A DNA stretch of 20,136 bases from Reclinomonas americana ATCC 50394. Its lineage: Eukaryota. Positions 244 through 20,105 of the stretch are shown here, piece by piece; positions within the stretch are counted from its first letter, which is position 1; each line of letters begins with the position of its first letter. The stretch is taken from assembly GCA_048213135.1 (NCBI GenBank), contig PS015026.1, positions 137,275 through 157,410 of the forward strand, given 5' to 3'. The notes under the pieces are model-generated. The model was given only the letters and a program-made list of their open reading frames with translations. It did not search any database and was not told the DNA's origin. Made by a program: the position numbers and the translations under genes.

Positions 244-2554
244 ATGTCTTCCAAGCGCGTCATGGTGTCTCAAGAAAAGGTGCNNNNNNNNNNNNNNNNN
301 NNNNNNNNNNNNNNNNNNNNNNNNNNNNNNNNNNNNNNNNNNNNNNNNNNNNNNNNNNNNNNNNNNNNNNNNNNNNNNNNNNNNNNNNNNNNNNNNNNNN
401 NNNNNNNNNNNNNNNNNNNNNNNNNNNNNNNNNNNNNNNNNNNNNNNNNNNNNNNNNNNNNNNNNNNNNNNNNNNNNNNNNNNNNNNNNNNNNNNNNNNN
501 NNNNNNNNNNNNNNNNNNNNNNNNNNNNNNNNNNNNNNNNNNNNNNNNNNNNNNNNNNNNNNNNNNNNNNNNNNNNNNNTCTCTCTTTCTTTCGTTAGTC
601 ACAATGTGCAGTCGACTCACTCACACGCTGTGAAGGCACGAGCTGCTCTGCTGGCACACCACCCCTTTGCTCTGTGTGGTGCCGACCTCGCCGACTCTGC
701 ACACACTCTGTGCGCGGTGATTGACTGCCCAGAGAGTGCCTCTCGCATCACCAGTGAAGAGGAGCTTGTCGACGCCGTGGTCTCGGCCGGAAGCATGGTC
801 GGTCAAAGTCACGACCCCAATTGAAGCTGCATGTCGTTCCGATCGTTCGACTGACCGAGTGTAATATTATCGAACATGTGTGTGTCTAGCAATTGCGTGA
901 TGCGTTGTCGGTGGTGGATGTGCAGCAGCTGGCGAGCAAGATGGGCGTGAAGGTGCCGCCGGTGGTGACCAACCCGCGCGCCCATCAGCGAGTGGTGAAA
1001 CAGGTGTGTACGGAAGCGGTGTCTTGTTCGGATTCGAGAACGAGAGAAACTGACTCTTGTTTTGCTGGTGCAGCTCATGCAGCGGTGGACGGAAGAGGTG
1101 GAGGTCGACGACGAGGAGCAGGGTGGCGGGTCGAAGCGGCGACGCGCCAAGAGCTCCTTCAATGTGTTTGTCAGCGATCAGATGCTGGCCATGGCGAATC
1201 CGCAACCGGACGATGTGGAGAATGTGAAGTGAGCGGAGTTGCCTGTGTGTTATCCATGGTGTTGCTGTTCCTCAATCAGGTGATCTTCTACGTGCAGTGC
1301 GTCTGCCCTCAACATGAGAGACAGGATGAAGGAGATCGGTTTGTGTGCATGCATGCATGATGCGTTGTGTGTGGTCAACAGCTGTCCCGTGCTAACGTTT
1401 TTGCCAGCTCGTCGCTGGCGCACCGTGACGCTGGAGGAGCGTGCCGAGTATCGAGATCGAGCAGCGCGTGAGCGTCAACAGCCTACCTCGTCCTCAAAAA
1501 AGGCAAAGAGCGAACCGGAGGCACCAGCCGCAAGCACCACCGCGGCTGCTGCGACTGCAGCGGAATCCGCTCCAGCTTTCACTCCCAAGAAACCCAAGAC
1601 CGCCTACGCCTGTTACACCAGTGCCGAGCGCAGTCGGTGAGCACTATACCGACTATTGGCTCGGCATACTTCCTGCCTGCCTCTCTCACTGCATGCTGCT
1701 CCAGTGTCGTCGCCGAGAATCCGCAAGTTGTCGGTCAGCCCAAGGAGATTACTCGTCTCCTCTGTTGCGTCGCAAGTTGAAGACCACGGTCACCCTTCCC
1801 ACACAAACTCACTTTCCCCGCTCGCAGCTGAAAAGTGGGCGACAGCCACTGCCGAAGTGAAGGCCACGTACGAGGCCATGGCCACGGCCGACCGTGAGCG
1901 GTACCAACGAGAACTGACCACGGGAGAAGTTGAAGGTCTGACACTCATCGTTGACATCGTGACATATTCACGCCGCTCACATGGAGTACAGCACCGCGGG
2001 GCGGCAAGGCACCGTCAGGGGGGAAGCGCGCACCCAAGAAAGCAGCCGACAATGGCGACAGTGGTGCTGCGCCGGCCGCGGCTGAAGAGGACGGACGCAA
2101 GGCACGCTCGGCGTTTGCCATTTTCTCCGCCGCCAAGCGCATGGAGTTGCGTTGCATCCCAGCACCCACCCCAACAATGATACACGCCGTTACTGACGAA
2201 ACTCACAGGAATCCCAACATTCGCCTGACGGAGATTTGTTGCGTTCCCTCCACCGTCTTCCACCCCCCAGTCTCTCCTCCCCACTGACCATCGCACACAG
2301 CGGCACTCTGGCGCGACACCTCCGAGGCCAATCGCGCCCCCTTCCAGGAGGTGGCGGAACGCGAGAAAGCGGCACTGCAGGCCTCCAGTGTGCCGCTGAC
2401 TGCTCTCAGTGCCACACCCGCGCCACCTCTGCCAACAATCGGCGCCGACATGCTGGCGAATCTGCCGCCGCTGCTGTCGACCGACATGGCATCGCTGCCG
2501 CCGCTGCTGGCGACCGACATGGCGTTGTTGCCGCCTCTGCCCCTGCTGCCGTGA
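244..2554 (+). CDS. Multi-exon protein with three HMG boxes (exons approx. 244-279, gap, 612-797, 890-1003, 1074-1228, 1298-1338, 1408-1636, 1705-1763, 1828-1935, 1992-2145, 2209-2237, 2301-2554)
   Basis: GT-AG splicing keeps one open frame and assembles three HMG-box-like units: RRAKSSFNVFVSDQ...MRDRMKEIARRWRTVTLEERAEYRDRAARER; PKKPKTAYACYTSAERSRVVAENPQ...KEITRLLSEKWATATAEVKATYEAMATADRERYQREL; KARSAFAIFSAAKRMENPNIRLTEISALWRDTSEANRAPFQEVAEREK. The 5' part is uncertain because of the gap at 284-579. Confidence 0.85.
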
Positions 2555-2630
2555 TGCAAAAACACAAGCACACACACACACATTCACGTCTATTTCGTCT
2601 TCGTATTCTCTCTACGTGTCTCTGTTGCGA

Positions 2631-5600
2631 CTATGGGGGCGCTTTCCGAATGAAGCACGACACGAAAAAGCCTCCCGTAGCCGTGGTTCCCGGTGAACAG
2701 CGCAGACATGCCGATGCTCCTGCGCACTCGGCGAGTGAGCTGCGTGAGGGGGAGGAGAAACAATAGCGCATAGGCGTACCCTGAAACACCACGTCGCGAC
2801 CGCGGTGTGGCCACGCAGGCATCACGTGCTCCAGCTCAAAGTCCGGACAGGCCTCCAGCACTCGCTGCACCACTCGCTCATTCTCCTCTTCGTGTATGGA
2901 GCACGTCGAGTAGACCATGCGCTGCACCGATGGAACTGCAGTCGGCACACGGACACACAGATAGACGGAGGGGCACAGTGAGAGAGGGTAGAGAGAGAGC
3001 GGGGGAAGAGAGAGAGAGAGGAGGGAGGAGGGAGAGAGAGAGGTGGGAGAGACAACAAAAAGACAGACAGACAGGCAGGCAGAGACACACAGTCAGGCAG
3101 AGAGACAAACAATCACACAAACAAACACGCAGACACATAGACAGACAGACAGATAGACAGATAGGCAGACAGACAGACAGGCAGAGAGACAGACAGACAG
3201 ACAGAGAGGCAGACAGACAGACACACAAACAAACAAGCACACAGACAGGCAAGCAAATACGCAGACAGACAGACAGGTAGGCAGAGAAAACAGCCGGAGA
3301 GGGACAGACAGAGAGACGGAGAGAGAGAGAGAGACAGACAAAACAAACACACAGGCAGACACACAGAGAGACAGACAGACAAAATGTCAAGTGTCGGTGA
3401 AGTGAGTGCTGCCGTGAGCGCAAACAACGCAACAAGAGAGAGCCTTCAAGCAGATCTGCGTCTGGAAACTCGACAGCTTGGAGAGCCGCTCCTGCAGTGC
3501 CTCCTCATCTGCGCAGAGGAGAGTGAGACGGAGGGTGGTGCGAGCAGTGGGTCGCACAAAAACGACGCAACCGACTTGCTCCCACTCGGGTCGATTGGTG
3601 AGGCCACTGCCCGAACATGAGGGGTCACACAAAATGTGCGTGGCTCGCCTCAGCAATGCGTCGTGCTCCGGATCGCATTGCAGGAAGCTGCGCAGGAAGT
3701 TAGTGACGAAGAGACATCATCAACTACATGATCGAGAAAACACAACTCTTCCAGCCGCGTGGTGATGCCTGCACACACAGACGCACAATGAATATCGACT
3801 AGAGATAGAGAGCAAGTCGAGGAACGTGGCACGCACAGGTGGCTCCCGTGCGCTCCACATTGGCGCGCAACGTCTCCATGCGATGCGCGTCACGATCAAA
3901 CGCCACCACCGCGCCCGTGTTGTTCATGAGGGCGGCCAGCAGTGTGGTCTTGTTGCCGGGCGCGGCACATGCGTCGACCACCACTGGCTCGAGCGCAAGG
4001 TCCGCCGAACCACTGGCCTCCCCGTTCGCCGCCTGCCTCTTTCGTCGCTCTTTGCGGTTCAAGGGCGTCGCCGGCACTGCGCTGCGACCGCGTGGTGGAT
4101 CCAACACGAGCGCCGGCAAGCAGCTGCTCTTTTCCTGCACGACCAGCGCACCCGATCGCACCAACTGGTTGCGCAGAATGGCCTTGTCGTCGTGCGCGAA
4201 TACGAGAAGCAGGTGAGGGAAGTCGACGTCCACGGTGAATGATTTCTCCTTTTCCACTTCACTGAAAAGGATAATGAGTGGGAGGTGGTGGTGGGTGGAA
4301 AAGCACGGGCGGGGTGGCGCAACTCAAATGACTCCACGCGACGGTAGCCCGACGACAGCACCTCCACCACCTCCTCCATGCTCGTTCGTAGTGTGTTGAC
4401 GCGCATGTAGCGGGGAATGGAGCGGTCGACTGTGGTGTGTGTGAGTGGGAGGTGAAGGGGAGTGAAAGAGAGTACGTGCGGAAGTACCAGCTTCATCGCG
4501 CAATCGTTCTGGAATGAGATCCTCGTTGCGCTCTACTTGTTTGCGTTTCTGGTTGGCGGAAGGGAGGTTGGTGGGAAACGAGGGGTCGACACAGAGATAC
4601 ACGAGAACACAAGAACGGTGAACATACATGCACAAGGTGCAACACAATGCAGACAGGGAGCCAACAAACACGCACACGTACTTACAATCAAGAAACGCAG
4701 AACAATGGAACACACCGCAAACAAGAAGCACAGTGCAATGGAACAGATGAGCCAATGCAAATGACCACGTAGGCTGAGATAAAGAGAACGCAGAATAACA
4801 CATCACGGACCAACAATAGAGAATGCAAATGCGCAAATGCACTCGTTGACAAAGAGACGCGGCACGCGTAAACAGAAAAGCAACGAAGAGTAACTAAGAA
4901 ACCAAGCACAACACAGTCAAGCAATACAAAGCATGCACAATATAAACAAGGACAATTCACACATAAGCACACACACACACACACAAAACACAAATACACA
5001 TACACATACACGTGTGCGCTCACCTTGAGTGCCTGCAGTGCGTTCTGGAACTTTTGCTTGTTGCCCTGAATCAGCCGCACCGCTGGCGACTTGGAGCGAA
5101 GGCCATTCAGACCGGTGCCAAAGAGCACATCGTACACCAGCAAGTACAGCAGAGGCTTGGAGAGCTGCGCACAGCGGAGGAGTGAGGGCGAATCATCGTC
5201 GCAGCGCAGTAAGAGGGGCTCGCGCAACAGTCTCTGTTGGCTTGAACTGCAGAGGCCAGCAGTTAGCACGAAGAATGCAACAGAAGTGGGGGAACGAAGG
5301 ACCGAACCCGAGTTGCGCGCAACACTTGCTCAATGGCCTCCGAATCTGTCGGCGACAAGGTGAGTGCCATGACAAGCATGCGATGGGAGTGACCACGATG
5401 CAGCGCAACATTTCAGTGTCTGGCACACCAGTGCATACGTGAATCTGAGGGGAGGAGGATGTGAGAGAGAGGGAAGCAAGATCGTCTGCATTCGTGCCAG
5501 TGTGCGCAAGGGGAGGAGAGTGTCGGAGCGAGTGCCTTCGTTTCTCGTGGCAGGGTGAACGATCACAGGGGTGCCAGTGTGAGTGAGTGCGAGAAGGAGA

Positions 5601-6703
5601 GAGAGAGAAAGAGAGAGAACGGAACAGTTCATGATTCACTCTCTCCGGCATGCACGCGATCAGAGATCACTCTTGCTGCTGCCTGTGTGTAAGAGTCGAG
5701 TGCGAGAGTGTGACAGAAAGACAGAGAGTATGAAGAGCTCCTCGACTCACTCTCGCCTTGCACGCATGATCACTTCTGTGCTCTCTCTGTGAGTGCGTGT
5801 GAGTGTGAGAGAATGAAAGAGCACCTCGTGAGTCACTCTCGCCTTGCATACATGCAAGCAGACGGAGATCACTCTTGCTGCTGCTGCTCTCTCGCTATGA
5901 GTATGCGAAAGAGACAGCACCTCGATTCACTCTCGCCTTGCATGCACGCAGTCAGAGCTTACTCTTGCTGCTGCTGCTGCGCTCAATCTCTCTCTCTCTC
6001 TCTGTGTGCATAAGTGTGAGTGTGAGAGAACGAAAGAGCACCGCGTGATTCACTCTCGCCTTGCATACATGCAGACGGAGATCACTCAGGCTGCTCTCTT
6101 TCTCTCCCCTAACTCTCTCTCTCTGTGCATAAGTGCGAGTGTGAGAGAACGAAAGAGCACCGCGTGATTCACTCTCTCCTTGCATGCATGCAGACGGAGA
6201 TCACTCAGGCTGCTCTCTTTCTCTCCCCTCACTCTCTCTCTGTGCATAAGTGTGAGTGTGAGAGAACGAAAGAGCACCGCGTGATTCACTCTCGCCTTGC
6301 ATGCATGCAGACGGAGATCACTCTTGCTGCTCTCTTTCTCTCCCCTCTCCCCCTCTCTGTGTGTAAGTGAGTGAAGAGCACATCGTTCAGTCTCTTCTAG
6401 CAGTCACAGATCTCTCTCTTTGTGAGTGTGAGTGTGACCTAAAATCATGATGCACTCCCTCCTTGCATGCATGCATGTACTCACAGATCACTCCTGCTGC
6501 TCTCTCTCTGTGCATAAGTGTGAGTGTATGACAGAAGCACTCCGTCATTCACTCTCTCCTTGCATGCATGCACTCACTGTCTCTCTCTCTCACTCGTTTC
6601 ACACGCACTTCTTATTCTTCACCGCATCGCGCAACGACAAGTCACGCGCACTGCCTCGCCTCGCCCACACATCACCCAACACCCTCTCCGCATCATTATA
6701 CAT
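2631..6703 (-). CDS. NSUN5: NSUN5/Rcm1 large-subunit rRNA cytosine-C5 methyltransferase, 13 exons (6703-6609, 5444-5410, 5345-5308, 5246-5229, 5164-5024, 4548-4488, 4429-4324, 4261-3837, 3768-3747, 3687-3572, 3508-3434, 2935-2780, 2719-2631)
   Basis: Spliced product contains MYNDAERVL...[86 protein letters not shown] and GFFVSCF. These are NOL1/NOP2/Sun motifs plus the NSUN5-type N-terminus, and all exon phases are consistent. Confidence 0.95.
2950..3382. repeat. Degenerate (GACA)n/(GA)n microsatellite tract filling NSUN5 intron 11
   Basis: Runs of gaca/gagaga seen directly; lies inside the intron at 2936-3433. Confidence 0.9.
5575..6580. repeat. Tandem minisatellite, unit about 118 bp, roughly 9-10 copies, inside NSUN5 intron 1
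   Basis: Near-identical units (gtgcataagtgtgagtgtgagagaacgaaagagcaccgcgtgattcactctcgccttgcat...cagacggagatcactc) start at about 6006, 6125 and 6242, with more diverged copies on both sides. Confidence 0.9.
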
Positions 6704-6990
6704 CACACTGACAAACACACACACTGACACAAAGAGAAGAAGAGAACAAAGACACACACACACACACAGAAGAGGAAGAGAGCAAAAAAGACACAGACAC
6801 TCGCTCTCTCTGTCTTTCTCTCTCTCAGACACACACACACACACACACACACTCTCACACACACACACACACTCTCTCTCACACAGACACACGCTCGCTC
6901 TTCAATCGTTCATTGTAATCGACTGAAATGCGTCTGTTGATTTTCTTCTTTTGTGTTTGTTTGTTTGTGTTTTGTTTGTTTGTTTTTCTT
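6704..6990. promoter_or_regulatory. Probable bidirectional promoter region between divergent NSUN5 and CFAP157-like start codons
   Basis: Head-to-head ATGs at 6703 (-) and 6991 (+), only 287 bp apart; the interval is mostly CA/CT and T/GT-rich low-complexity sequence. Promoter function is inferred from position only. Confidence 0.5.
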
Positions 6991-7218
6991 ATGGCTGATG
7001 ATAGCAATGGAGATGCTTCGTTGTCGTTTGAGAATGAGCTGATGGCGATTCAGATGCGGTTGGCGGGCGCGGAGCAGAGGTTGGGCGAGAAGGTGTGTGT
7101 GTGAGAGAGAGTGTGTGTGTGTGTGGGAGAGAGATAGATGGAGTGTGAGAGAGAGAAAGAGAGAGCATTGTGTGAGGGAGAGAGATCGACTTGTGATTGT
7201 TGATTTCGTGAAGAGTGT

Positions 7219-7276
<58 letters not shown>

Positions 7277-10200
7277 TGGTGTGTGTGTGTGAGAGAGAGA
7301 GAGAGAGTATGTGCGATGTTGGACTGCGTTGTGTGTGAGAGATCGTTCTGTGATGAGCAGTTGTGCACTCTCACCTTCTCTGCCTGGCCCTCTTCCTCTC
7401 TCTCGTGTCTGGTCTCTCTTGCGTTTGTGAGCAAAGTGCGATCGTTGGTTGTTTTGTGTGGCGTGGAGACTTGAAAGTGAGAAACGCAGTCGTTCTTGGC
7501 CATGTGCACGTGTTGCTGAGCGTGTGTGATCGCTCAGCGTTGGTGTGTATCGGTGTCGATCGTCGTTTTTCTCGTCTCTCAAACACATTCACAAACCGTC
7601 ATCTCTCAGCGCCGTTCTTTCTCTCTCTCTTTCACACACACTCGCACGATTACTCGCACAGTCACGGTTCGCTGGTGCGTGTTCTCAACACGTAGGCGAC
7701 GGCTGCTTGCTTACCGTTGTTCTTTCGTCGCCGTTCTTCTCTCCCTCCTCACTCCACGTGTGTGTATTTCTCAGCGCGTTGCGATGGCAAATCGCTTATC
7801 GTTGTCTTTCGTCGGTGTTCTTTCTCTCCCCTCTCTTGGTTCACACATTTGCACGATTACTCGCACAGTCACGGTTCGCTGGTGCGTGTTCCTCAGCACG
7901 TAGGCGATGGGTGCTTGCTTACCGTTGTTCTTTCGTCGCCGGTCTTCCCTCCTCCTGTCCTCCTGGACGTGTATTCCCCAGCTCGATGGCGATGTGGATC
8001 TCTTATCGTTGTCTTTCATCGCTGTTCTTCGTGCCGTCTCTTGCATTCTCTGTGACATGCTTGCACGATTACTCGCAGTCGCGGTTTCTGTGCGTGTGAT
8101 CCTCATCACGATGGCGATAGGTGCTCCCTTTCCGTTGTTCTTTCGTCGGCCCCCTCCTCTCCATACGGGTGTGTATTCCCCAGCTCGATGGCGATGGCAG
8201 ATCGCTTATCGTTGTCTTTCGTCGCCATTCCATCTCTCCTCATGCTGACACATACATGCACCTTTCTTGCACAACTGCGGTGCTCGTGTGTTCCGTAGAC
8301 GTGATCGCTTGCTTTCTCATTTCTCGATGCCGATCGCTTTTGTCACTTAAACGCAGTGTACCTGTCGTTCTACTTCTGTCGTCTGTCTCTCCCATCTCGC
8401 ACTCGCACAACCACGGTGTACGCACCCCACATTTCGTTTGGGATGCCATGTTATCGTCTTTCGTCTTCTATCGATGACAATCATCGATCACGCATCTCCA
8501 TACCGCACACTGTCGCATTCTCTTCTCCCTTGCATTGCTCTCTTGTACGATCCCTCTTTTGTCATTGCTGTTGCTCTCCCCCTTCACCCTTTCACCCTCC
8601 CTCCTCTCTCCCCAGGACAACATCATTGAACAACTACGAGCCTACTGCGTCAGCCTGCAAGAACAACTGGAAGACGTCAAGGACGACCTGCGCACGACTG
8701 AGGAGAAGTGTGCGGTTCGTTATCCCCCATCCCTCTTCCACCCTTCCCCCCTCCCTTCCCCCGTCATCCCCACCCTTCTCCCACCCGTAGGTGGAGGTCT
8801 ACGTGGTCAAGGAGGAGAAAGAGTCGGAGGTGCTGGAGAAGGAGGTGACGATCCGCTCACTGCAAATCGAGGTGGAGCGGCAGAGCAACGAGGTGGCGCT
8901 GTACCGGCAGTACGAGTTGGAGAACATCAAGCTGCGCAAGTCGGTGGTGGAGCTGCAGGAGCGACTGTTGCGAGTGGAGCGGGAGTCGACGCACCGGGAA
9001 CGCGACCTGAAGGAGGACATTGCGAGATATCGCTCGATGCTCGACGAGGAGTTCCGCTCGCAGCTCGCCTCCAGCGAGGCGCGCTTTCGACAAATGGCAT
9101 TCGACGATCTCGACGAGGAGGCCAGGAAGGCTCTCACCGAGAATCGCAAGCTGCACAAGGCGCTATCGGAGCAGAGCGATCAGGTGGAGTTGATTCTCGA
9201 GCGCGCACGCCATCTGGAGGCCGAGAAACGGAAACTTGTGCGTTTTTCATTCATTCTCGCGACATTCATGTCGTCTTCTTCTTCTTGTATGCTGATTATT
9301 GGGGTGGCGCAAAAAAAGACGGTGGACGTGTCGGTGAGCCACGAGGCGGAGGATTTGCGCTCGCGGGAAATGAGTATTCTGCGCAAGCGGCTGTACGAGA
9401 CGCAGACGAGAGCGACACAGCTCGAGGATGCGTTGCGCACGAGAGAGGTGGAGCAGGCGTCGATGCAGCTGTTGTACTCGGAGTTTGAAGTTGCGGCTGC
9501 GTGGTGGAGGGAGCGCGATGTCATGACCGGTCCTCACATGCTGCATGCAGCGGCTGCGTGGGGAGTTGGAGGAGACCAAGAAGAAATACGAAGCCGCCAA
9601 GCTGGAGGCTGAAAGGTGGCGCGCCAAAGCAATGCATGGCGCCAGCAGTGAGCCCGAGTCGTCGGTGCGTGCTGATTTCCGTGCTAGTTGCATTTCACGA
9701 GATACAGAAAAAAAGAAGTCTCACTTGTCGCGCATACAGTTTCTCTCTCGCCTTCCGCCACGAGTTGCGCGTCGTTTTTTGCCCCGTATTGTGGTCCTCA
9801 CTCGTGGCCGTTACTCACAACTCCCACCGTTTCCTTTCCAATCCTCCCCCCACCTCCCGCACGCACAGTTCCGCGCCGATCGAGGTTTGTCTGCTTTGGC
9901 GCACGCATTTTTTATATATTGAGTGCGTGTTTCCGATATCGGCGGTGAAAAAATTCTCACAATACACAACACCACCACGGCAGACGACGAGGCAGCAATT
10001 GACGAGACGCATGCCAGGAGGATAGGCGACAGCGAGGAGGACACCAGGCGCATCTGGAACGCGCAGCTGTCGGGTGATTCCACCCTGGGCGATCGTCCTG
10101 TTTCACTCTTCTCCTCCAGCGAGGCCTCTTCGCCCACGCAGCAGCCGCCGCAACCCCTTTCGGCGTCTGGCTCCGAGGGGCAACAGCAACGCACGCGCGC

Positions 10201-10411
10201 TGCACCGCCTCCCTCACCGCACCTCTACCCGGGTGGACCGCTGCGCTCGGAGGCCGAGCGCGTGGAAAAGGATCGCGCACTCAGCGTGCTGAACAAGGCC
10301 TCGGTGCGCGTGGTGGCCAAACCGGCCAGGCGCGCCGATGCTGCGGCAGCACTGGCGGCCAACGGGCTTGGTGTACAGGGACGCGCACCGGTTCGTTACG
10401 TTGTACCGTGA
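6991..10411 (+). CDS. Long coiled-coil protein, CFAP157-like (exons approx. 6991-7092, 8616-8714, 8791-9237, 9319-9489, 9551-9664, 9740-9763, 9869-9884, 9984-10411)
   Basis: Phase-consistent GT-AG splicing gives an E/K/R/L-rich heptad protein. The segment FRQMAFDDLDEEARKALTENRKLHKALSEQSDQVELILERARHLEAEKRKLTVDVSVSHEAE resembles my recollection of the cilia/flagella-associated protein 157 family, so the family call is tentative. Confidence 0.7.
7093..7310. repeat. (GT)n/(GA)n microsatellite at the start of CFAP157-like intron 1
   Basis: Alternating gtgt and gaga runs seen directly. Confidence 0.9.
7630..8240. repeat. Tandem repeat, unit about 210 bp, about 3 copies with an internal sub-repeat, inside CFAP157-like intron 1
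   Basis: gcacgattactcgca recurs at 7644, 7851 and 8063. Each unit carries two related blocks, gcttaccgttgttctttcgtcg and gcttatcgttgtctttc. Confidence 0.85.
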
Positions 10412-11394
10412 CAGTGAAAGGGAAGAAGGCACGAGAAAGACGGGCCGGGGGTCACGCGGGCAAGTGAGTCTGTTTTCAGCACCGATTGCCTTTTCAAGTG
10501 GCAGGCTCCGCCTGGCTGCTGTGCCCATAGCATCTTTCGCACGGACGATGACCGCCGCACGTCGCCATGCTGTAGCATGTCCTACACACCCGATGCCGCG
10601 GCGTCCTCTCAGCAAGGACCGCATCCACGCGCGAGATTCCCGCAGGCCGGCGCCTCCTTTCGGGCACGCCATGCGACATTCGTCTTTCGGCATTACCGGC
10701 GCCGCGAATGAGCATCGATAGGTCCACGCTCAATGGCTGTGTCCCCCCTCTCTCTCTTCCCACCCACTGACACAGGCGCATGGGTGGGCGTGTTGCGTTG
10801 TGCGTGCACATATATTCATTGGTTCGCACAACAAGAATAGAATATGTGGTGGCGACCGAGTGGCCTAAATTGAATCTTGCGCGACACGATCGTGTGCACA
10901 CGTCAGCAACGGTCGCCAACGACACCTCCCGCAACGCATTGGGCGACAGCAGTGCTCCCACCGGATGCCCACGGCGCGAGGGTGAGTTGGGGTCGCCATG
11001 ATGTGCTTTAGCCGTTTTCGGCGATCACTGCTGTATCGTGCGCGGATTGTTTTCACTTTATTCTTTTCCTTCCCTCCAGTCGTGTTCGTATCTCACTTTC
11101 CCTTTCGCTGCGCGCGCAGGTTCGTTGCCAGCGCGGGTGGAGCCCCGGGGCGCCCGCGATGACGACGAGACACGGCGGTTGTGCACAATCAAGGCAAGCA
11201 GGTGGCTTTTCGATTGGTCGTTGCCCATTGACGAAAGACGTTTGCCCTTTTTTGCCGCCGTGACCACGAAGCGACACAGAACACAAATTGGACGACGGAG
11301 CGGAGCGCGCGCGCACACTACCTCGAACAAACGACGCGGAGAGAGAGAGAGGAGAGAACACGCATTCTTCCTGTGCCTTCTCCTGCCTTCTTCC

Positions 11395-11988
11395 ATGGAT
11401 CAATCGTCTGCGGCCTTGCTTCGCGGGCCGGCCCCCACCAGTGGCAACAGCAGCAACAGCAGCAGCATCGCAGCTTGCCTTCAGCAGCACCACCATCTCA
11501 ACCCTCTTCTTCACCACCACCACCACCACACTCAGCAGCAGCAGCAGCAACAGCAACAGCAGCAACAGCGGTACTCTGACGGTCTGCTGATGGCCGGCGT
11601 CTCCACCTTTGGCGACTCGATGCACGAGCACGGTGGCCGAGTTCCTGTTTCCGTCGTGTCGCGCACCAGTGGATCCTTTGTGCTGCCGCTCTCCATGGTC
11701 GCCGTCGATGACCCCTTTGGCCAGGCACAGCAGCAGCAGCAGCTCTATCAGCAGCAGCAGTTCCAGCTCTTGCGCCAACAACAACAGCAGCAGCAGCAGC
11801 AGCAACGAGCGGCGGTTGGCGACGATTATGATGGTGCTGCGGAGGATCAGCAGCTGGACTTTGATGGCCTCGTCCACCGACAGCGCCTGCAACAGCAGCA
11901 GCAGCAACTCCAACAACAGCAGCGACAGTTTATGGCGACCGCTTCTTCCTCAGACGGGAAAGCATATTCGTCGTCGGCGTTTCAACAA
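11395..11988 (+). CDS. N-terminal polyQ/polyH low-complexity part of a putative transcription regulator (runs into gap)
   Basis: ATG at 11395 opens MDQSSAALL..., with several CAG/CAA polyQ tracts, open up to the N gap. It probably continues in 13892-12721 (-). Confidence 0.7.
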
Positions 11989-12177
11989 NNNNNNNNNNNN
12001 NNNNNNNNNNNNNNNNNNNNNNNNNNNNNNNNNNNNNNNNNNNNNNNNNNNNNNNNNNNNNNNNNNNNNNNNNNNNNNNNNNNNNNNNNNNNNNNNNNNN
12101 NNNNNNNNNNNNNNNNNNNNNNNNNNNNNNNNNNNNNNNNNNNNNNNNNNNNNNNNNNNNNNNNNNNNNNNNNNNNN

Positions 12178-12408
12178 CTGTTGTCGACCGTGGCCACTCG
12201 TGAGCTGGTCCATGCCGTGGTGGAAATGAGTGGCGTTCTGGCGCTGGTCGACTTCTTCTTGTACCTGGGTGCCTTCTTCACCGAGATGAACCTGCAAAAG
12301 CCGGTGCGGTGCCTGACCATTGCCGATCGCTTGCTGGGAGTGGAAGAGTTCGACATTCGGGCACAGCGCAAGGAGTACGCCAGAGCCACAGGAGGTGCCA
12401 GTCGGTGA
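12178..12408 (+). CDS. C-terminal part of an RDD-family membrane protein
   Basis: LLSTVATRELVHAVVEMSGVLALVDFFLYLGAFF...RCLTIADRLLGVEEFD matches the RDD C-terminal pattern (xxRE, hydrophobic helix, TxxDxxxG). Composition is unlike the polyQ ORF before the gap. Confidence 0.7.
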   Translation: MLSTVATRELVHAVVEMSGVLALVDFFLYLGAFFTEMNLQKPVRCLTIADRLLGVEEFDIRAQRKEYARATGGASR

Positions 12409-12720
12409 GACGCGTAGCTACGTAGGAAGAGAGGCGATGCGTGTCGCGTGTGTAGACGGGCACATGCAGAATCCAGAGAGATTGTTGGATGTAATTCAAT
12501 TGGTGATTGGTTGTTATTTTTTGTTTCTGAGCGAGAAAAACTAACGAGCTGATTGTGTGGCAAAAGAGATTAGGAGTGCCAGCGGGTGCACACTATTCTA
12601 TACATAACAGAGTGGCACCACGGAGAGAAAAAGAACACTGACAAACGAAGAAAGGGAGAGGGGGGGGTGGTAGCGAAAAATCGACGACGACGACCATAAC
12701 AATATCGACGTGGGAGTGAG

Positions 12721-12811
12721 TTAGTGACGCTGACGCTTCTGCGGCGGCGGCGGAACCGCGTATGCGGCAAGCTGACTGCCGAGTGCGCCACCCATGTGCA
12801 TGCGTCGGTCG

Positions 12812-12844
<33 letters not shown>

Positions 12845-13892
12845 GCATCCCCATGACGGGCATCGTCAGTGGTGGAGCCGATAAACTCGGCGTTTTCGTC
12901 GTCGTCGTCCACGGCGTCGCCAAAAGCACGGCTGTACGCACGGCGTCGGCTGGACACTTGCTTTTCGCGAGTGCCTTCGTCATCATCAATGGCCAACAGC
13001 TCGTCGTCGTCCAGGCTGCGCCCGCCCGACTGTTGCAGCTGATGGTGATGATGCAGTTGTTGCTGGTGGTGATGGTGTTGTTGTTGTTGCTGCTGCTGCT
13101 GCTGCATGTGAAGATCATGCATGTAGCGCAGGTGCTCCTTGCCGTCAACGTCGGCGCCGGTGGAGTACGAGTCGGCAGCCGCCAGAGACGGGGGAGGACG
13201 GTGGCAAAAGGCCAGTCGATCGTCACTCGCGCCACCGCTCTGATCTGAGGAGGCGGCACCAGCGTGCGAGCTGCGCGAGCGGCGACTGCCCAGTGGGTTG
13301 CCGGCGCGGTTGTAGATTTTGCCCTGTGCATGCACCCACTGTCAGCAACCATGACAGATACAAGAGGCATCTCAATACAGAAGAAAGAAAACTCAACGGT
13401 GCGCTTGGTGCGACGCTGGAACAGGCGGAAGACGGTGGAGACGGCACACAGGCGTCCATCCACCTCCAACACGAAGCGCATGTACGGGCAAGTGGCGCCC
13501 GGCAGACGGCTGATGCGGAACACAATGGTCACAAAGGAGCTCTCACCACTGCCGGCCTTGGCGGAGGCACCCGACGAGTACGACAGCGGCATCTGCCTGC
13601 CCGGCGAGTCGGCCACCGGTGTGCCCGCCGCCGACGACACAGAGCGTGACGGCTTCTTGGCGCCGGGCGCCAGGTTCCATGACAGCTGCACCTCGTGGGT
13701 GGAGTCCAACATACCGGCCAAACTGGACGGGAGAATTCCCCCGACACCACCCGGTGTGCCGGCCAGCGAGCCACCAGAGGAAGAGCCGGCGGAGGCCATG
13801 TGCGGCGGCAGCAGCGCGCCATGCAGCAGGCCGTGCTCCGGCGCCATCTCCACACGGAACACCACTCGGGATGGCTCACCCAAGTATGGAAT
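12721..13892 (-). CDS. C-terminal part of a polyQ/H, poly-Asp putative transcription factor (exons 13892-13398, 13323-12721)
   Basis: Acceptor gtgcgtag precedes IPYLGEPSRVVFRVEM. A beta-rich block FVTIVFRISRLPGATCPYMRFVLEVDGRLCAVSTVFRLFQRRTKR is followed by Q/H and D tracts and a terminal PPQKRQRH (NLS-like), then TAA. Confidence 0.7.
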
Positions 13893-13970
13893 CTACGCAC
13901 AAAAATGGGATCGATATCAATCATGAGTGCTCCCACTCAACACACACACGNNNNNNNNNNNNNNNNNNNN

Positions 13971-14919
13971 CGCCTGCACGTTACACGTTCTTCAGCTGAC
14001 GACAACTCGGAGGAGGAGACAACTCCACACACACACACACACACACCTGCGGCGGCTTGCTCGGATCCGTCAGTTCCTCAGTAGACGCCACACCAATGCC
14101 CATCATGCGCTGCTTGACCACGGCACCGACCACGTACGACAAGGCCGCAAACGACACACACGTGATCAGAACACGATTCGGCAGCGCCTCCGCTCCCTGT
14201 CGTGCACCACCGACTCTCGCCTGCGCCGGTGCATCCATTGCCACTCCCAGCCGCAACATCTCCTCCTCTTCCACGCGACTCCGATGCAGGAACGTAAGGA
14301 AGGACACGAAAGCAAAGGCCAACACCGAGGTGACGATCCACGAGCTGCTTGCACACAACAACGATGAAATGAGGACCGCAGCAGTGACGGGAAGCGATCA
14401 GTGCACGCAACAGAAAGCGTGCCAGCAGTCGCTTGAACATGCTTGGTGGACGGATCTTGATCTTGGTCGGTGGCACAGGTGGAGGCGGAGGCAGCGCCAC
14501 ATAGGTGACTGCCACTGGCGGTGGCATTACGCCGGGTGTGGGCAGTGCAACGGGAGGCGGTGCACTGACACCCACACCCACAGAGGCCGCCACTGAAGCA
14601 GCAGCAGCGTCGACACCACTGCAGGCGAGAGTGAGGAGAGAGCAAGAAGAGTGTGACCGAACACACACACGAAACGATGATGGTGGCGACGGGGGAGAGG
14701 GAGGCACTGCGGCTGCGGTGCTATTGTTGCGCGCGGGGAGCAGCAGCAGAGAACGCACAGTGGTGGTCTGTGGCGCAGGGTGGTTACGTGCAGACAGTGT
14801 GAACAGTGTGCGCACGTGCGGCACTGTCAGCGCACTGCGAGGCACACACAGCGAGGGTGAGTGGCGGTCTCTCGCGTGCGTGTGTGCGGGATGAAAAACA
14901 CTGACCGTGAGAACCACAT
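13971..14919 (-). CDS. N-terminal part of an RDD-family (FAM8A1-like architecture) membrane protein (exons approx. 14919-14906, optional 14767-14759, 14618-14412, 14344-14047, 13973-13971)
   Basis: Pro-rich N-terminus, then PSMFKRLLARFLSWIVTSVLAFAFVSFLTFL and LITCVSFAALSYVVGAVVKQRMMGIGVAS, resembling the RDD motifs RRLLARLID and GKRLMGIRVV. The start exon is uncertain. Confidence 0.65.
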
Positions 14920-15055
14920 GAGCTCTCCTCTTTGCAGCGCGATGAGAATAAAACCCTCCCGCCCTTTCCAACAGTTTTTTTCTGCTCACCGGAGAAGATG
15001 CATGCTGCTACTTGTGGAGCGAGTGGTGGTCGAGATTCACATTCTTTATAGACTA

Positions 15056-15345
15056 CTACTGCACTGGGTACCACAACATGTGGATCTCCGAGACCATGAT
15101 TTCGCAAAACGCATACTCGGCACCCTGTGCGGCGGACGAGTTAGTTTGAAGCAGGAGCACACTCACAACTCGAGTCGACTCACCATGGCGACAACCTGTT
15201 CCAGCACCTCCGCCAGATCGCTCTGCAGCACCGAGACCAGTCGCTGACGCTTCGTTGACTCCTCGGTGGGGAGCAGCAGCTTCGCCTCCGACCACAGCAC
15301 AGCCAGCAGGTTCTCAATCATGTCTGCCACACGACATGAGTTTTA

Positions 15346-15406
<61 letters not shown>

Positions 15407-15452
15407 NNNNNNNNNNNNNNNNNNNNNNNNNNNNNNNNNNNNNNNNACTAAC

Positions 15453-15509
<57 letters not shown>

Positions 15510-18500
15510 CTCGCAATCGAGCGACGCAACAAACAGTATTGTCGAGACCGCGACTCAATTCCGCGCTCTGCTGCTCCAGCTGCCGCTGCACCAGCGCCTC
15601 TAGATCGTGTGGTGGATATCGCATTGCAGATCCCTTGTCGCCGAACGCGATCTACGCAATACCCACCATTGAGCACACCATTTCCCTCCATCCATCCATT
15701 CTCCTGCTCACTCGCCCGTCACGCACCTTCATCATCTCCGCCTGGCTCAGATCATTTGCTTGCTTCTGCCGCACGTCCTCCAGTGCGCGCTTGAGCATCT
15801 CAAAGCGGTTCACCGCATACCGCAACGACTCGCGCATCACATCCGAGAGCGTCGGCTGCCGAGTGCTCACACCTCGGTGACCTGTACGATCGGCTCGTGA
15901 GGAAACAGAAGAGTATAAATGCGAGAGAAGCGGTTGCAGAAGTACATACCGAGCTCCAGCGCAAGTTGTGGCGGTGAAAAGAGCGGCTCCTTGGCTCCTG
16001 TTTGCGCCTCCCGCACTGTGTTCATCGTCAGTCATTGGGTGGACGACGTAGGAGGAATGGAAACGAAACACGTACCCATCACCACTTGCCGGCAGTGCGT
16101 AATCAAATTCTTGGTGATCTTTTCGCACAGACGAACCACTGTGCGATAGAACGGAGTGGTCACGCACACGGCATGGAACAGGATGCAGTTCACAAAAAAG
16201 AAGCCACGCACCAGCAGGCGCGAGCGTCGACGGGGAGGTCGACAGCAGTCGCACGTATCGCTCAAGAAGGGCAGGGAGTTGGCTCTCGTATTTGAGCAGC
16301 TTTGGCTTCAACTGTGTTTTCAAAAAAAAAAAATGAGCACGTAAAAAAGCCACACCCAGACCAGAGAGAGAGAGAGACGAAATGCGCAACATTCCGTCGC
16401 AGAGCACCCGCGGACAATAACCACAGCGAGGTGGCCTGGTAAATCATCTGCAAGGTGACAGTGTCGCTGGTCTCTTGCAGCTTGAAGGCGCGCGAGAACA
16501 GACTCGAGTGTTGCTCGATGAAATGTGCCACCTGTCACAGCATCACACGTCAGCGCAAGCGCACACACTCACAATGGCACACAATGCTCGCAACGGCATC
16601 CTGCGGCTTGACTGAATCGAATTTGGCCAGCTCCGACAGCAGAGTGAAGCACGCCGACAGATACCGCTCGTGTCGCTCCGCCACCGACATGTGGAACCCG
16701 TCTGCAGGAAAAAAACAGCATGATGAGTGCACAGCATTCTCGCTACGAGCGGCGGCGACACTTACCAGCAGTGCGCAGCGTGTGTGCATTCGGCGACCTC
16801 CAATCCGAGTGGATACGACGCAGGTACTTGGCACTGTTCAGCACCTCTACAGTGTTGCAGTTGCACAGCAGCTCCACACCGCTGTCCTTTTGCGCCAGCT
16901 GCGAGAGGAACGACAGGCGCGACTCGAACAATTTGAGCCAGTAGTCTGTGTGCGCATTCGTCTCGGTCGCGTCAGCAGTACGTCTCATGTGGGGAAAACA
17001 ACAAGACTCCGCACCAGACATCTCCTTCGTCGACTCCATCAATGCATTGTCCAGCTCCACCAGATCTGCAGGTGACATGAGCAACACTTACTACACCCCC
17101 AGTTCTCCGACACAAATGCGCTCACCATTGACGAGCTCAACCAGTGCATGCTGGTTCAAGTGGCGCAGCAGGTGCTCACGAGTCTGCAAGTCGAACAATG
17201 CGGAGAGTGCCGCATGCGCCACTGGCTTCCACTCGCGCGGGCCGTTGCAGCAGTCGGCACAAATCATGTCACACAATGCGTTGTCGTACTGCGTCAGGCG
17301 TGCCTGTTGCTCCGTCTCCAGATACACGGCGGCCGTCGGTGCACCGGCATACAACTGCTGCAGCACTGCGGATTCCTCCTTTGATTGTTGCGCCAAGTTG
17401 GCCGAGTATCTACCATGCACAGTGTGAGAGCGATTCGCAAGGCAACAGAGGGACGCTGTGGACGAGACCTGGAGTAGTGCATCAGCACCGTGTACAAACA
17501 GCCGCGGACGTCTGGGTGGAATTTGACTGAGGCGGCCAGTGCTGCCAGCAGCGCCTGCAGGAGGTCCACGCAGTCCTTGACCACGTTGGCGTTCTTCACC
17601 GCTGTAAATCCACATGAGGTAAGTTAAGAGACATGTGACTCTCGAGAGATATCATTCGCCACCCGACGAACCGTGACCCTCACTCTCGCGTCGCAGCTTC
17701 ACCATCAACACGATGCACGCCTCGCCGAACAGCTTGCGCAGATTCGCCGGCATGCTGTGCTCCGCCAGGTACACCAGTAGTCTCTGCAGCAGCTGGAACA
17801 CCACGCGGTACTGGTCCTCGGGTGGAATCTCCGTGAACCGCTTGGACAAGGTCACTTCCACGACCTGCTTCCATCCGCGGAAGAGATTCAGCACGTCGGC
17901 CTCAGCATCACTCGCCGAGTTCCACTGTGACGCAAAGGTGACCAACTGGCGAATCTCATCAGACGCCTGCGAGGTGCGTCAAACAAGTTAGCAACACGTC
18001 CTCTGCCATCGCAACCCACGCTCTCCGAATCTCGACTCACCTCCACCACACTGCGCTGCGTCTCGGCCAGCACACGGAAACACACAGCCAGAATCGTGGG
18101 GATGCTGTAACGCGTCTCGCCCATTTCCGACATCTGCGAAGCATGCAGAGTGAGTGCGGCAGCACACAAGCACAAGTGGGGCGCCAACTGAGAACGGAAC
18201 CTCCTTGCACGAATCGACATCCACCTCAAAGAGGATGCTCAGCCGTGGTCGCTCCGGCCGCGGGAACACCCCATACGGCAACGCCTCCAGCCACTGCAAC
18301 ATCTGGAACGAACCATGGTCGCGAGCCACATCCACAAACTGACTGCCGTACGACGACACTTCGAGTCTGCAAAGAGGGGAGAGTTGGCAAGGAGAGCGTT
18401 GAGAAGAGGAACGCACACGGCACGACGCACCTCTGCCACACGCTCTGGTACAATTGAGAAATCACGGTTGACACTTGTCGTCGCACATCGTCTCGTCGAT

Positions 18501-19168
18501 GGTCTGCGCACGAAAGCACACAAATGTCGCGCTCAGTGTACGAGGTATAACCATGAATACCAATGACAAATATAACGCACCGAGGAAGAGTGCAATCGCC
18601 GTGGTCTGGAACAAGTATCCGTGGCCGCGAATGCGCATCAGATCGGAAACGAATTCGGGACTGTCGAGGTCCAACGTCGGCAGCGGCAGAAGTGGACTGG
18701 CGAACAACTCGCCGAGAACGTCCGTCTGCAGCACACACTTTGGTTGGTCACCATACACTTAGCCCGTCTGACATGCACGCGCACGCAACATCTGACGCTT
18801 GCAAGTAGCCAAAGAGAGCCTCGGCCGTGTGGCGGTCTGCCGCAAACACCGACACGAGCTGCATGGCCAGTGCGTACAACTCGGGCTGCTCGCCTGCATC
18901 CGCCACGAGGATCTGCCGCACGGCGCGCAAACACGACTTGTCTCGGGTTGAACTCGAAGTCACTGCCGAGGAGAGCGCCGATCAACATCTCTGTCTCCTT
19001 GAGCACACACGCACAGAGTGATGGCACATATATTGCGCAACAGTAGTACTCGTCAGCAATGCCATCGTCGCGCATGAAGCCGCACAAAAAGTGCGACAGA
19101 GTGTATGTGTTTGGCTTGGCGCAGCGGATGAGGAACTTGAGGAGCCAGCCACGCATCTCCGCTTGAAC
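15056..19168 (-). CDS. NUP205: Nucleoporin Nup205/Nup192, C-terminal half (about 20 exons)
   Basis: Spliced segments resemble Nup205 in the expected order: MRGWLLKFLIRC...LSHFLCGF, FRGWKQVVEVTL, VRGCLYTVLMHY, LCDMICADCCNG...AALSAL, LFESRLSFLSQLAQKDSGVELL, VAHFIEQHS, YMIENLLAVLW. Stop TAG at 15056-15058. Confidence 0.85.
15349..15507. repeat. (CA)n microsatellite spanning a gap in a Nup205 intron
   Basis: Pure ca repeats on both sides of the Ns at 15407-15446. Confidence 0.95.
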
Positions 19169-19313
19169 CTGTGACAAATTATGAGTCGGTGGTGAGCATC
19201 CTGGGGNNNNNNNNNNNNNNNNNNNNNNNNNNNNNNNNNNNNNNNNNNNNNNNNNNNNNNNNNNNNNNNNNNNNNNNNNNNNNNNNNNNNNNNNNNNNNN
19301 NNNNNNNNNNNNN

Positions 19314-20105
19314 CTGTTGCGAGATGCGATGAATCAGCCGGATCACTTGCCCGAAACACTGCTGAAGCTCGTCGAGTCTGCGCTGGTCGGCACCGACCGC
19401 GTCGAGTTGCACGAGGGTATGTTTTGTCACCACGCTTCAGGCACACCGCACTGTTGTGTCGCTGACGATCTCCATTCAGGACGCTGGATGGAGGAGTATG
19501 TGTTGAATGCGCTGCGGCTGCTCGACTTTTTGTTGCGACGTCAGGACGCATTCCGTGAGCTGTCGAACCAGAACCGCGGAGGCGTGCCACTGCATAGTCT
19601 GGACGAGTGGATTGCTCGCCAGATGAAGTACGTGCGCAAACTCTTCCAGCTGGCCTCGTACCGCTACAATGCCGAGGTACTGTTTCGTCATGCAATCGAG
19701 TTCAATCCTGCCACTTACTTTTGTGCCCGAATGCAGGTCCGCCTCTATGCCGCCCGAGTCCTCTACTCGCTCTCCGATCAGCACCAGTCCATGTTCAGCT
19801 TCCTGTCCCTCATGTCGGAACATCCGCTCATTATTGCCGACCTGAACGACTCGCTGGAGGACGCCGATATCGCGTACGACATTTTCCCCGACGAGGCCGA
19901 CCAGACAGACTACGTCGCCTTCTCGAGTTGCGTGCGCGCTCTCTGTCTCTCATTCCCTCATTTGTTCCTCTGCTTCGCTCACGCACTGTTGCGTGCAGAC
20001 CAAGAGAAGACGGAGCGGTACACGCTGCAGCAGTATCGAGTGGGCGGCGTGGAGGTGCTGTCAGCCGATCTGCGGGAGGCCGATCCAGTGAGACAGCGGC
20101 AGCTG
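19314..20105 (+). CDS. NUP205: Nup205/Nup192 middle segment (exons approx. 19314-19416, 19480-19676, 19737-19926, 19999-20105), opposite strand to the rest of the gene
   Basis: MEEYVLNALRLLDFLLRRQDAFREL...LHSLDEW...VRLYAARVLYSLS...IIADLNDSLE resembles the Nup205 region immediately before the segment that starts at 19168 (-). It ends at a phase-0 donor, gtgagc, at 20106. Confidence 0.75.

Follow-up and report, generated by a model that had tools for sequence, protein, structure and literature searches.

A 20,136-base stretch of the Reclinomonas americana ATCC 50394 genome (assembly GCA_048213135.1, contig PS015026.1, positions 137,275 to 157,410; hereafter the window) raises the question of whether one organism can mark the start of its introns by two different rules. 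The window has about 55% G+C and several N gaps, and contains seven genes, lettered A to G below, with short and very densely packed introns. A sequence-only reading had proposed that about 30% of these introns, 17 of roughly 57, open with the hexamer GTTGCG as a second major class of 5' splice site (donor). In our analysis, the DNA does contain a discrete GTTGCG class, and its members fall precisely on exon borders that homology supports. We give a probability of roughly 55% to the reading in which it is a second 5' splice-site class, W/GTTGCGY (the slash marks the exon-intron border), carried by major (U2-type) introns, shifted by one base from the main class, and paired by a non-canonical small nuclear RNA (snRNA) arm.

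Abundance of GTTGCG among curated introns

Introns were hand-curated from three-frame views and then checked by script, which yielded 53 GT-AG introns and left the reading frames of all six intron-bearing genes open. GTTGCG is the commonest donor hexamer in this set, opening 17 of 53 introns (32%), close to the share proposed earlier, and GTGCGT is next with eight, the donor at 6608 included. By position of the G, the 53 donors divide into 29 with G at +5, the 17 GTTGCG donors, five others with G at +6, one GTACTT, and one masked by Ns. All 17 positions listed in the sequence-only reading carry the hexamer on the strand it named. The donors are spread over six genes (A 3, B 5, C 2, E 1, F 5, G 1), one more than it had counted.

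The hexamer is also overrepresented in the window as a whole, with 39 copies against 18.44 +/- 4.75 expected from 100 dinucleotide-preserving shuffles (maximum 33; none reached 39). Relative to gene strand, 29 copies are sense, eight antisense, and two intergenic. Without the 17 proposed donors, 22 copies remain; because this is in line with the chance expectation, the excess of GTTGCG is made up by the donors.

Beyond their first bases, the GTTGCG introns resemble U2-type introns. All 17 open with GT and close with CAG, in keeping with the normal AG ends noted before, and their median length is 64 nucleotides (nt). A YTNAY branch motif lies 12-22 nt before the 3' end in 14 of the 17 and 43 or 51 nt before it in two, and none is seen for the intron at 18789. 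Their 3' ends, branch motifs, and pyrimidine content are similar to those of main-class introns, and frame and collinearity are preserved, as judged from the open reading frames, the NSUN5 profile, and a shared HMG-box intron position (both below).

A discrete class, one base out of register

Independent base frequencies at +3 to +6 predict 1.72 GTTGCG sites among the 51 readable donors, whereas 17 are seen (Poisson 6e-12). Such independent degeneracy, which the sequence-only reading had itself named as an explanation that would refute it, is therefore not enough within the window. The exon side differs as well, with G at the exon end (-1) in 1 of 17 GTTGCG donors versus 24 of 29 main-class donors (Fisher 3e-7).

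The class does not fit the canonical register, in which G is expected at +5 and preferred at -1: +5 is C in all 17 GTTGCG donors and the exon-end G is nearly gone. Of 23 readable donors with a base other than G at +5, all but one carry G at +6. The base at +7 is T in all five of the G+6 donors other than GTTGCG and T or C in 15 of 17 GTTGCG donors; at +6, T is found in 20 of 28 main-class donors. The TGCGY at +3 to +7 matches the local TGCGT at +2 to +6, and GTTGCG(T), GTTGAG(T), and GTTGTG(T) equal GTGCGT, GTGAGT, and GTGTGT with one extra T, so that the earlier description of the motif as GTGCG(T) with one extra T is supported as a pattern. Removal of one base likewise turns GTTCCG, GTCTCG, and GTACTG into main-class hexamers, and these three retain G at -1. 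When slid by one position, W/GTTGCGT makes 6 of 7 matches to the extended main consensus G/GTGCGT. The class consensus is W/GTTGCGY, next to a degenerate main class, G/GTNNGT, led by GTGCGT and GTGAG. The ratio GCG:GAG:GTG is 17:1:1 in the shifted class versus 8:7:3 in the main class (p=0.005). These counts support GTTGCG as a separate, mainstream donor class within the window sample.

Two donors start with GTACT, namely GTACTT and GTACTG, at 4487 (minus strand) and 19677 (plus strand). GTACTT has no G at +5 or +6 and is the only readable donor that falls outside both registers.

Donor-blind tests of intron placement

Because restoration of the frame is by itself a weak argument, tests independent of the donor sequence were made. 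A dynamic-programming parse scored codon usage, GT...AG, intron length, and 3'-end features while remaining blind to the donor hexamer; these parses missed small exons and served as a blind test rather than as gene models. GTTGCG opens 8 of the 34 introns found in this way, although it accounts for 28 of the 1305 sense GT sites (binomial P=5e-7). Forbidding GTTGCG as a donor costs the parse 9.8 score units, compared with a mean of 0.33 and a maximum of 3.3 when equal numbers of random GT sites are forbidden (30 controls). In a second test, the same donor-blind score was used to rank all frame-preserving GT-AG alternatives to each curated intron. The GTTGCG donor ranks first in 11 of 17 introns and second to fourth in the other six, and over all 53 introns it is the commonest blind top choice (11, versus 5 for GTGCGT). 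The downstream sequence points the same way. A CTNAY...CAG that ends 61-79 nt downstream follows 12 of 17 donors, compared with 2 of the 12 sense copies that are not donors and none of the 8 antisense ones, and both of those sense copies sit beside or within other introns. Pyrimidines make up 63% of the 50 nt downstream of GTTGCG donors, versus 46%.

Introns are cited below by the position of their donor. In genes C, E, F, and G, the GTTGCG introns and one shifted-register relative are:

9490..9550, plus strand: GTTGCG intron of 61 nt in gene C, frame 0 to 1; donor-blind rank 1 of 32; recovered by the blind parse
9764..9868, plus strand: GTTGCG intron of 105 nt in gene C, a stop-free multiple of three; weakest of the 17
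14345..14411, minus strand: GTTGCG intron of 67 nt in gene E, frame 2 to 0; donor-blind rank 1 of 26; tandem acceptor CAAGCAG
13324..13397, minus strand: GTTGAG intron of 74 nt in gene E, in the shifted register (GTGAGT plus one T); recovered by the blind parse
18963..19041, minus strand: GTTGCG intron of 79 nt in gene F; donor-blind rank 1 of 23
18726..18789, minus strand: GTTGCG intron of 64 nt in gene F, frame 1 to 2; donor-blind rank 1 of 26; recovered by the blind parse
16532..16594, minus strand: GTTGCG intron of 63 nt in gene F, with in-frame stops; donor-blind rank 1 of 36, leading GTGTGC at 16582 by 0.2
16312..16390, minus strand: GTTGCG intron of 79 nt in gene F, frame 2 to 0; donor-blind rank 1 of 21, leading GTCTCT at 16378 by 0.3
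15324..15530, minus strand: GTTGCG intron of at least 207 nt in gene F, with a (GT)n array and an N gap; donor-blind rank 2 of 104
19927..19998, plus strand: GTTGCG intron of 72 nt in gene G, a stop-free multiple of three; donor-blind rank 1 of 13

For the intron at 19041, an in-phase GTGCGT at 19014 offers an alternative intron of 52 nt that scores 4.4 lower, and the GTGAGT within intron 16532..16594 is out of phase. At 15530, only GTTGCG had been said to work. The neighbouring GTTTGT at 15534 does fall out of phase when joined to the acceptor at 15324, but GTCTCG at 15548 is in phase and scores 0.3 better in the donor-blind test, so the donor is not the sole candidate. The intron at 19927 ends in CGCTCAC...GTGCAG.

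A 12-nt direct repeat, GCGGCTGCGTGG, is found on the plus strand at 9493-9504, a few bases into intron 9490-9550, with its second copy at 9552-9563, at the start of the next exon. A repeat of this sort is what a local duplication that created an intron would be expected to leave behind.

Homology evidence from NSUN5

Gene B encodes NSUN5, a ribosomal RNA (rRNA) cytosine methyltransferase whose best hit is 40-42% identical, and it allows junctions to be judged by conservation. A hidden Markov model (HMM) was built from 35 of 38 homologues, those 380-600 residues long. It places the curated junction top among frame-preserving GT-AG alternatives in all ten NSUN5 introns tested. The relevant sites are:

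5346..5409, minus strand: GTTGCG intron of 64 nt; HMM best of 5 GT-AG alternatives by 19 bits
5165..5228, minus strand: GTTGCG intron of 64 nt; only frame-keeping GT donor, HMM margin 5.8 bits
4262..4323, minus strand: GTTGCG intron of 62 nt, weakly fixed; HMM lead of 1.9 bits over GTCATT at 4332
3509..3571, minus strand: GTTGCG intron of 63 nt, a stop-free multiple of three; HMM margin 2.6 bits
2936..3433, minus strand: GTTGCG intron of 498 nt with an (AGAC)n array; HMM best of 17 alternatives by 16.4 bits
3688..3746, minus strand: GTTGTG intron of 59 nt, in the shifted register with another middle base; HMM best of 9 by 7.3 bits
6630..6635, minus strand: exonic GTTGCG in exon 1, encoding Ser-Leu-Arg; a negative example

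The junction at 5409 supplies the Y of TLKY and that at 3433 the F of ALS-F-PSV, and with HMM margins of 19 and 16.4 bits the alignments bear out the TLKY and FP residues that the sequence-only reading had derived from these two donors. The GTTGTG junction at 3746 supplies the D of a conserved DFL. When every boundary pair within +/-9 nt was scanned, with any dinucleotide allowed, 5409, 3433, and 3746 each ranked 1 of 117, with small margins of 1.6 to 3 bits. NSUN5 homology thus pins the donors at 5409 and 3433 to the base. The intron at 3571, which ends in CTCAC...GCGCAG, gives 446.5 bits when removed and 442.2 when retained, and ranks 3 of 38 in the donor-blind test; the intron at 4323 ranks 3 of 21.

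An 18-nt micro-exon, 5229-5246 on the minus strand, encodes FKPTET and lies between a GTTCGG intron and the GTTGCG intron at 5228. Skipping it lowers the HMM score by 11.1 bits, from 446.5 to 435.4.

A shared intron position in the HMG-box gene

Gene A, which encodes a three-box HMG protein, offers a second kind of evidence that does not depend on the donor. Its GTTGCG introns are:

1764..1827, plus strand: GTTGCG intron of 64 nt in box 2, frame 0 to 1; donor-blind rank 4 of 37
2146..2208, plus strand: GTTGCG intron of 63 nt in box 3, a stop-free multiple of three; donor-blind rank 1 of 5; 3' end TACTGAC...CACAG
2238..2300, plus strand: GTTGCG intron of 63 nt in box 3, with an in-frame stop; donor-blind rank 1 of 17, by 7.5 units

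In Pfam matches, the exons that follow the introns at 1339, 1764, and 2238 begin at the same HMG-box profile positions, 37/38 onward, and in all three boxes a phase-1 intron lies three residues before the conserved Trp. Because the paralogous boxes have this intron position in common, the donors at 1764 and 2238 are fixed by it. Boxes 1 to 3 use GTTTGT, GTTGCG, and GTTGCG, which means that one intron position can hold either donor type. Internal duplication of a box that already held the intron is the probable origin of the HMG boxes of gene A, and the donor type probably switched after that duplication.

U1 pairing and the proposed mechanism

Predicted pairing to the U1 snRNA was computed with ViennaRNA duplexfold, with bulges and internal loops allowed. 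The mean duplex energy with a canonical U1 arm is -6.61 kcal/mol for the main class (n=29), -2.76 for unused exonic GT sites (n=541), and -0.58 for GTTGCG (n=17); the predicted pairing of GTTGCG is weaker than that of the exonic GT decoys (p=1.4e-5). Alternative registers give no improvement, with duplexfold finding 2-5 pairs at +0.7 to -2.8 kcal/mol for GTTGCG sites. When the canonical arm is used to tell donors from decoys, the area under the receiver operating characteristic curve (AUC) is 0.89 with main-class donors and 0.19 with GTTGCG donors. Out of 3863 variant arms with up to three substitutions, or one insertion and up to two substitutions, one complementary to GUUGCGU reaches AUCs of 0.83 (main) and 0.96 (GTTGCG), which we offer as an illustration rather than a finding. 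The sequence-only reading had left a choice between register-shifted recognition and a variant U1 or U6 snRNA. Plain shifted or bulged pairing to canonical U1 fares poorly in these predictions (-0.58 versus -2.76), and the greater GCG specificity of the shifted class (17:1:1 versus 8:7:3) favours a variant snRNA. An altered or additional snRNA arm is favoured because the hexamer is nearly invariant, has no predicted affinity for the canonical arm, and follows its own exon-side rule.

In the mechanism that we propose, GTTGCG introns would be ordinary short U2-type GT-AG introns except at their start, with a CTNAY branch motif 12-22 nt before CAG, as in the main class. The second class would be read one base off, through G and T/C at +6/+7 rather than +5/+6. 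When the site is slid, its +1 G occupies the place of the main-class exon-end G and may stand in for it, which would make the exon-end G itself dispensable. Pairing to a non-canonical snRNA arm would be the most likely mechanism. One candidate reader is the lineage's sole U1, with its 5' arm altered or lengthened; another is a paralogue of U1 with an arm that complements GUUGCG(U). A fuller version, which we put forward tentatively, has two 5' splice-site codes, with canonical U1 reading ordinary donors and a dedicated GUUGCG-complementary arm, on a U1 paralogue or a re-tooled U1, reading W/GTTGCGY on about one third of introns without G at -1. All that is said here of the snRNA is inferred.

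Pairing of GTTGCG with the 3' end of its intron was also considered and dropped; CGCAG ends were counted by eye in 3 of 17 GTTGCG introns versus 2 of 28.

Competing explanations

Several observations weigh against the proposal of a shifted class with its own snRNA arm, and they are gathered here together with the alternatives. Hand placement could have created the class if GTTGCG, a common codon pair (Leu-Arg, Val-Ala, Cys-Cys), merely lay near ordinary donors and the true sites were elsewhere. A frame-preserving GT donor is unique within +/-90 nt for just 2 of 52 introns, 5228 among them, and for most introns 3-26 alternative donors restore the frame. Four of the 17 GTTGCG introns (2146, 3571, 9764, 19927) are stop-free multiples of three, which the frame does not demand. 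The placement of six of the 17 is weak (4323, 3571, 9764, 15530, 1764 if the paralogue argument is set aside, and 3433 if homology is), 16594 and 16390 lead their rivals by at most 0.3 units, and 9764 ties in the donor-blind score with GTCCTC at 9794, where the frame is open from 9526 to 9922. Some of the less well fixed members (4323, 3571, 9764, 15530, 16594, 16390) could be wrong, and we infer from sequence that the GTTGCG introns are spliced as placed. The hexamer alone is not enough to make a donor, with nine sense copies exonic; one of them, 6635, had been entertained as an eighteenth GTTGCG donor and was rejected because the HMM gives it 447.4 bits versus 462.0 for the GTGCGT donor at 6608, 27 nt downstream (14.6 bits). 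The sample is one 20-kb window with six intron-bearing genes. A placement artefact is nonetheless improbable, as the donor-blind parse recovers eight of the donors (P=5e-7), blind ranking puts 11 of 17 first, 5409 and 3433 are placed by homology and 1764 and 2238 by the intron position that the paralogous boxes share, non-donor copies stand at 22 versus 18.4 expected, and the branch motif with CAG follows 12 of 17 donors versus 2 of 12 other sense copies. Nor is it easy to see the class as a frequent product of one very degenerate consensus (GT, T/G, G/C, C/G, G/T). Main-class donors do vary widely, and some carry T at +3 without leaving the register (GTTTGT, GTTCGT, GTTCGG), but independence yields 1.72 sites where 17 are found (Poisson 6e-12) and the exon-end G falls from 24 of 29 to 1 of 17, which makes this account hardly credible. 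An introner or transposon-derived intron family with a conserved GTTGCG end and a T-preferring target would suit three features: a narrow length range (61-64 nt in 10 of 17 GTTGCG introns versus 4 of 29 in the main class; post hoc p=0.002), a -1 base that is T in 10 of 17 versus 2 of 28, and the 12-nt repeat flanking the 9490 intron. No model tried accounts for either the length bias or the T at -1. Against such a family, local alignments have a median score of 7 whether the pairs come from within the class (105), from different classes (375), or from shuffled sequence; the 3' ends carry no inverted-repeat partner of GTTGCG; and paralogous HMG boxes hold the same intron with either donor type. 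The unrelated intron bodies rule out a recent introner family, and we consider any such origin very improbable.

The alternative that takes most weighing keeps a single canonical U1, which would read GTTGCG(T) by a one-base shift or a bulged U at +3, with U1 small nuclear ribonucleoprotein (snRNP) proteins or U6 compensating. It accounts well for the motif as the local G/GTGCGT slid by one base, with G+6/T+7 in place of G+5/T+6 and a dispensable exon-end G, and for GTTCCG, GTCTCG, and GTACTG as main-class hexamers plus one base that keep G at -1. The pairing analysis has two limits: its 11-base arm is the general canonical one, with pseudouridine treated as U, rather than that of the host genome, and nearest-neighbour energies take no account of U1C, U1-70K, or other proteins able to stabilise a weak duplex. 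Few RNA sequences in eukaryotes are as conserved as the U1 5' arm, which argues against an altered arm, and a single arm ending in CC would call for G at -1 in GTTGCG donors, contrary to what is observed. According to the part of Tan et al. 2016 (PMC4856993) consulted, human cells demonstrably use shifted and +3-bulge registers, but the same part puts them at about 1.5% of sites, as opposed to one third here. Predicted binding of GTTGCG to canonical U1 also falls below that of unused exonic GT sites (-0.58 versus -2.76; AUC 0.19), mismatches break the shifted pairs into 1+2+2, and a canonical arm should prefer GTTGAG or GTTAAG, whereas GCG makes up 17 of 19. We therefore regard recognition by canonical U1 as rather unlikely, though deserving of serious consideration, and retain the non-canonical arm as the preferred reading.

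Genes and assembly features of the window

The genes of the window are:

244-2554, plus strand: gene A, three-box HMG protein
6703-2631, minus strand: gene B, NSUN5 (Pfam RsmB/F; 38 homologues)
6991-10411, plus strand: gene C, coiled-coil protein
about 11395-12408, plus strand: gene D, glutamine-rich protein
minus strand: gene E, with a membrane-like segment and Gln/His/Asp tracts
19169-15058, minus strand: gene F, C-terminal part of a Nup205/Nup192-like nucleoporin, on weak Pfam matches
19314 onward, plus strand: gene G, without a family match

The Nup205-like exons of gene F match Pfam with E values of 2.6e-5 to 6e-3, a conservation too weak for junction tests. Four more exons of genes F and G have no Pfam match, and neither do genes D and E. 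Long CAG/CAA (poly-Gln), His, and Asp tracts lie at 11441-11930 on the plus strand in gene D and at 12800-13120 on the minus strand in gene E. The 5' end of gene E offers a possible ATG at about 15003 with GTGAGC as its donor at 14990, and a further one or two introns may come before 14618; the count of 53 does not include them. Gene F holds 19 introns in 4 kb and starts, on the minus strand, at an acceptor next to the N gap 19207-19313, and its N-terminal half is missing. Directly past the same gap, gene G begins within an exon on the plus strand. The junction of genes F and G at 19170-19314 could be a mis-joined or inverted scaffold piece, or gene G could be a separate gene. An Rfam scan of the window gave no matches.

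Ten introns are multiples of three without in-frame stops (1339, 2146, 3571, 9238, 9665, 9764, 17014, 19417, 19677, and 19927), and all three introns of gene G are among them. By a rough estimate this is about the chance frequency, with no depletion. The three long introns carry tandem arrays: (AGAC)n, 82 copies at 3050-3381, in NSUN5 intron 3433-2936; a 117-nt unit repeated 3.2 times at 5924-6369, in NSUN5 intron 1 (6608-5445); and a 207-nt unit repeated three times at 7610-8225, in intron 1 of gene C (7093-8615).

Comparison with known systems

Apart from the GT itself, eukaryotic 5' splice sites are most strongly conserved in the G at +5 and the G at -1, and the U1 5' arm that reads them is almost invariant. 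If the second class is real, a free-living organism whose commonest donor lacks both and cannot be accounted for by this arm would be a natural experiment on 5' splice-site choice. It would help to clarify what U1 and U6 each contribute, how pairing registers are used, and whether snRNAs and splice sites can co-evolve. Gene finders trained on one donor matrix would misplace about a third of this organism's introns. A GTTGCG or GUUGCG donor class was not found in the main text of open-access papers and bioRxiv preprints; a genome paper may have reported it.

U12-type introns, which are expanded in Physarum, have a second sharp 5' motif, are read by another snRNA, and share genes with ordinary introns. 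The likeness lies in a second sharply defined donor motif beside ordinary introns in the same genes. The U12-type /RTATCCTT donor and TCCTTAAC branch site are absent here, TATCC occurring in 0 of 53 donors, and GTTGCG introns differ from U12-type introns in sharing the branch motifs and CAG ends of the main class. Variant U1 snRNAs with altered 5' arms are encoded by the human vU1 genes. Should a U1 paralogue read GUUGCG, the mechanism would be the same; to our knowledge, the known variants are minor and none serves a large group of introns.

The main class of the window has a parallel in Mamiellophyceae, whose AG/GTGCGT main donor and CTGAC-type branch motif resemble it. The portions consulted of the studies on Ostreococcus (Irimia and Roy 2008, PMC2483917) and Micromonas (Verhelst et al. 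2013, PMC3879977) describe a GTGCGT(G) main donor with a CTGAC branch motif, raise snRNA changes that would complement the divergent donor, and do not mention a GTTGCG class. As those portions describe them, these algae are intron-poor with one strict consensus, whereas the window is intron-rich and has two classes within single genes.

Human shifted-register and +3-bulge 5' splice sites resemble the GTTGCG class in that the introns are GT-AG, the bases after GT fit the consensus when slid by one, and cleavage stays at the GT. Such sites were reportedly described by Roca and Krainer in 2009 and by Roca et al. in 2012. In the part consulted of Tan et al. 2016 (PMC4856993), they are validated and amount to about 1.5% of sites. 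The human sites are rare, varied in sequence, and pair well with canonical U1 in an alternative register. Here, by contrast, one near-invariant hexamer opens 32% of introns and is predicted to stay unpaired with canonical U1 in any register.

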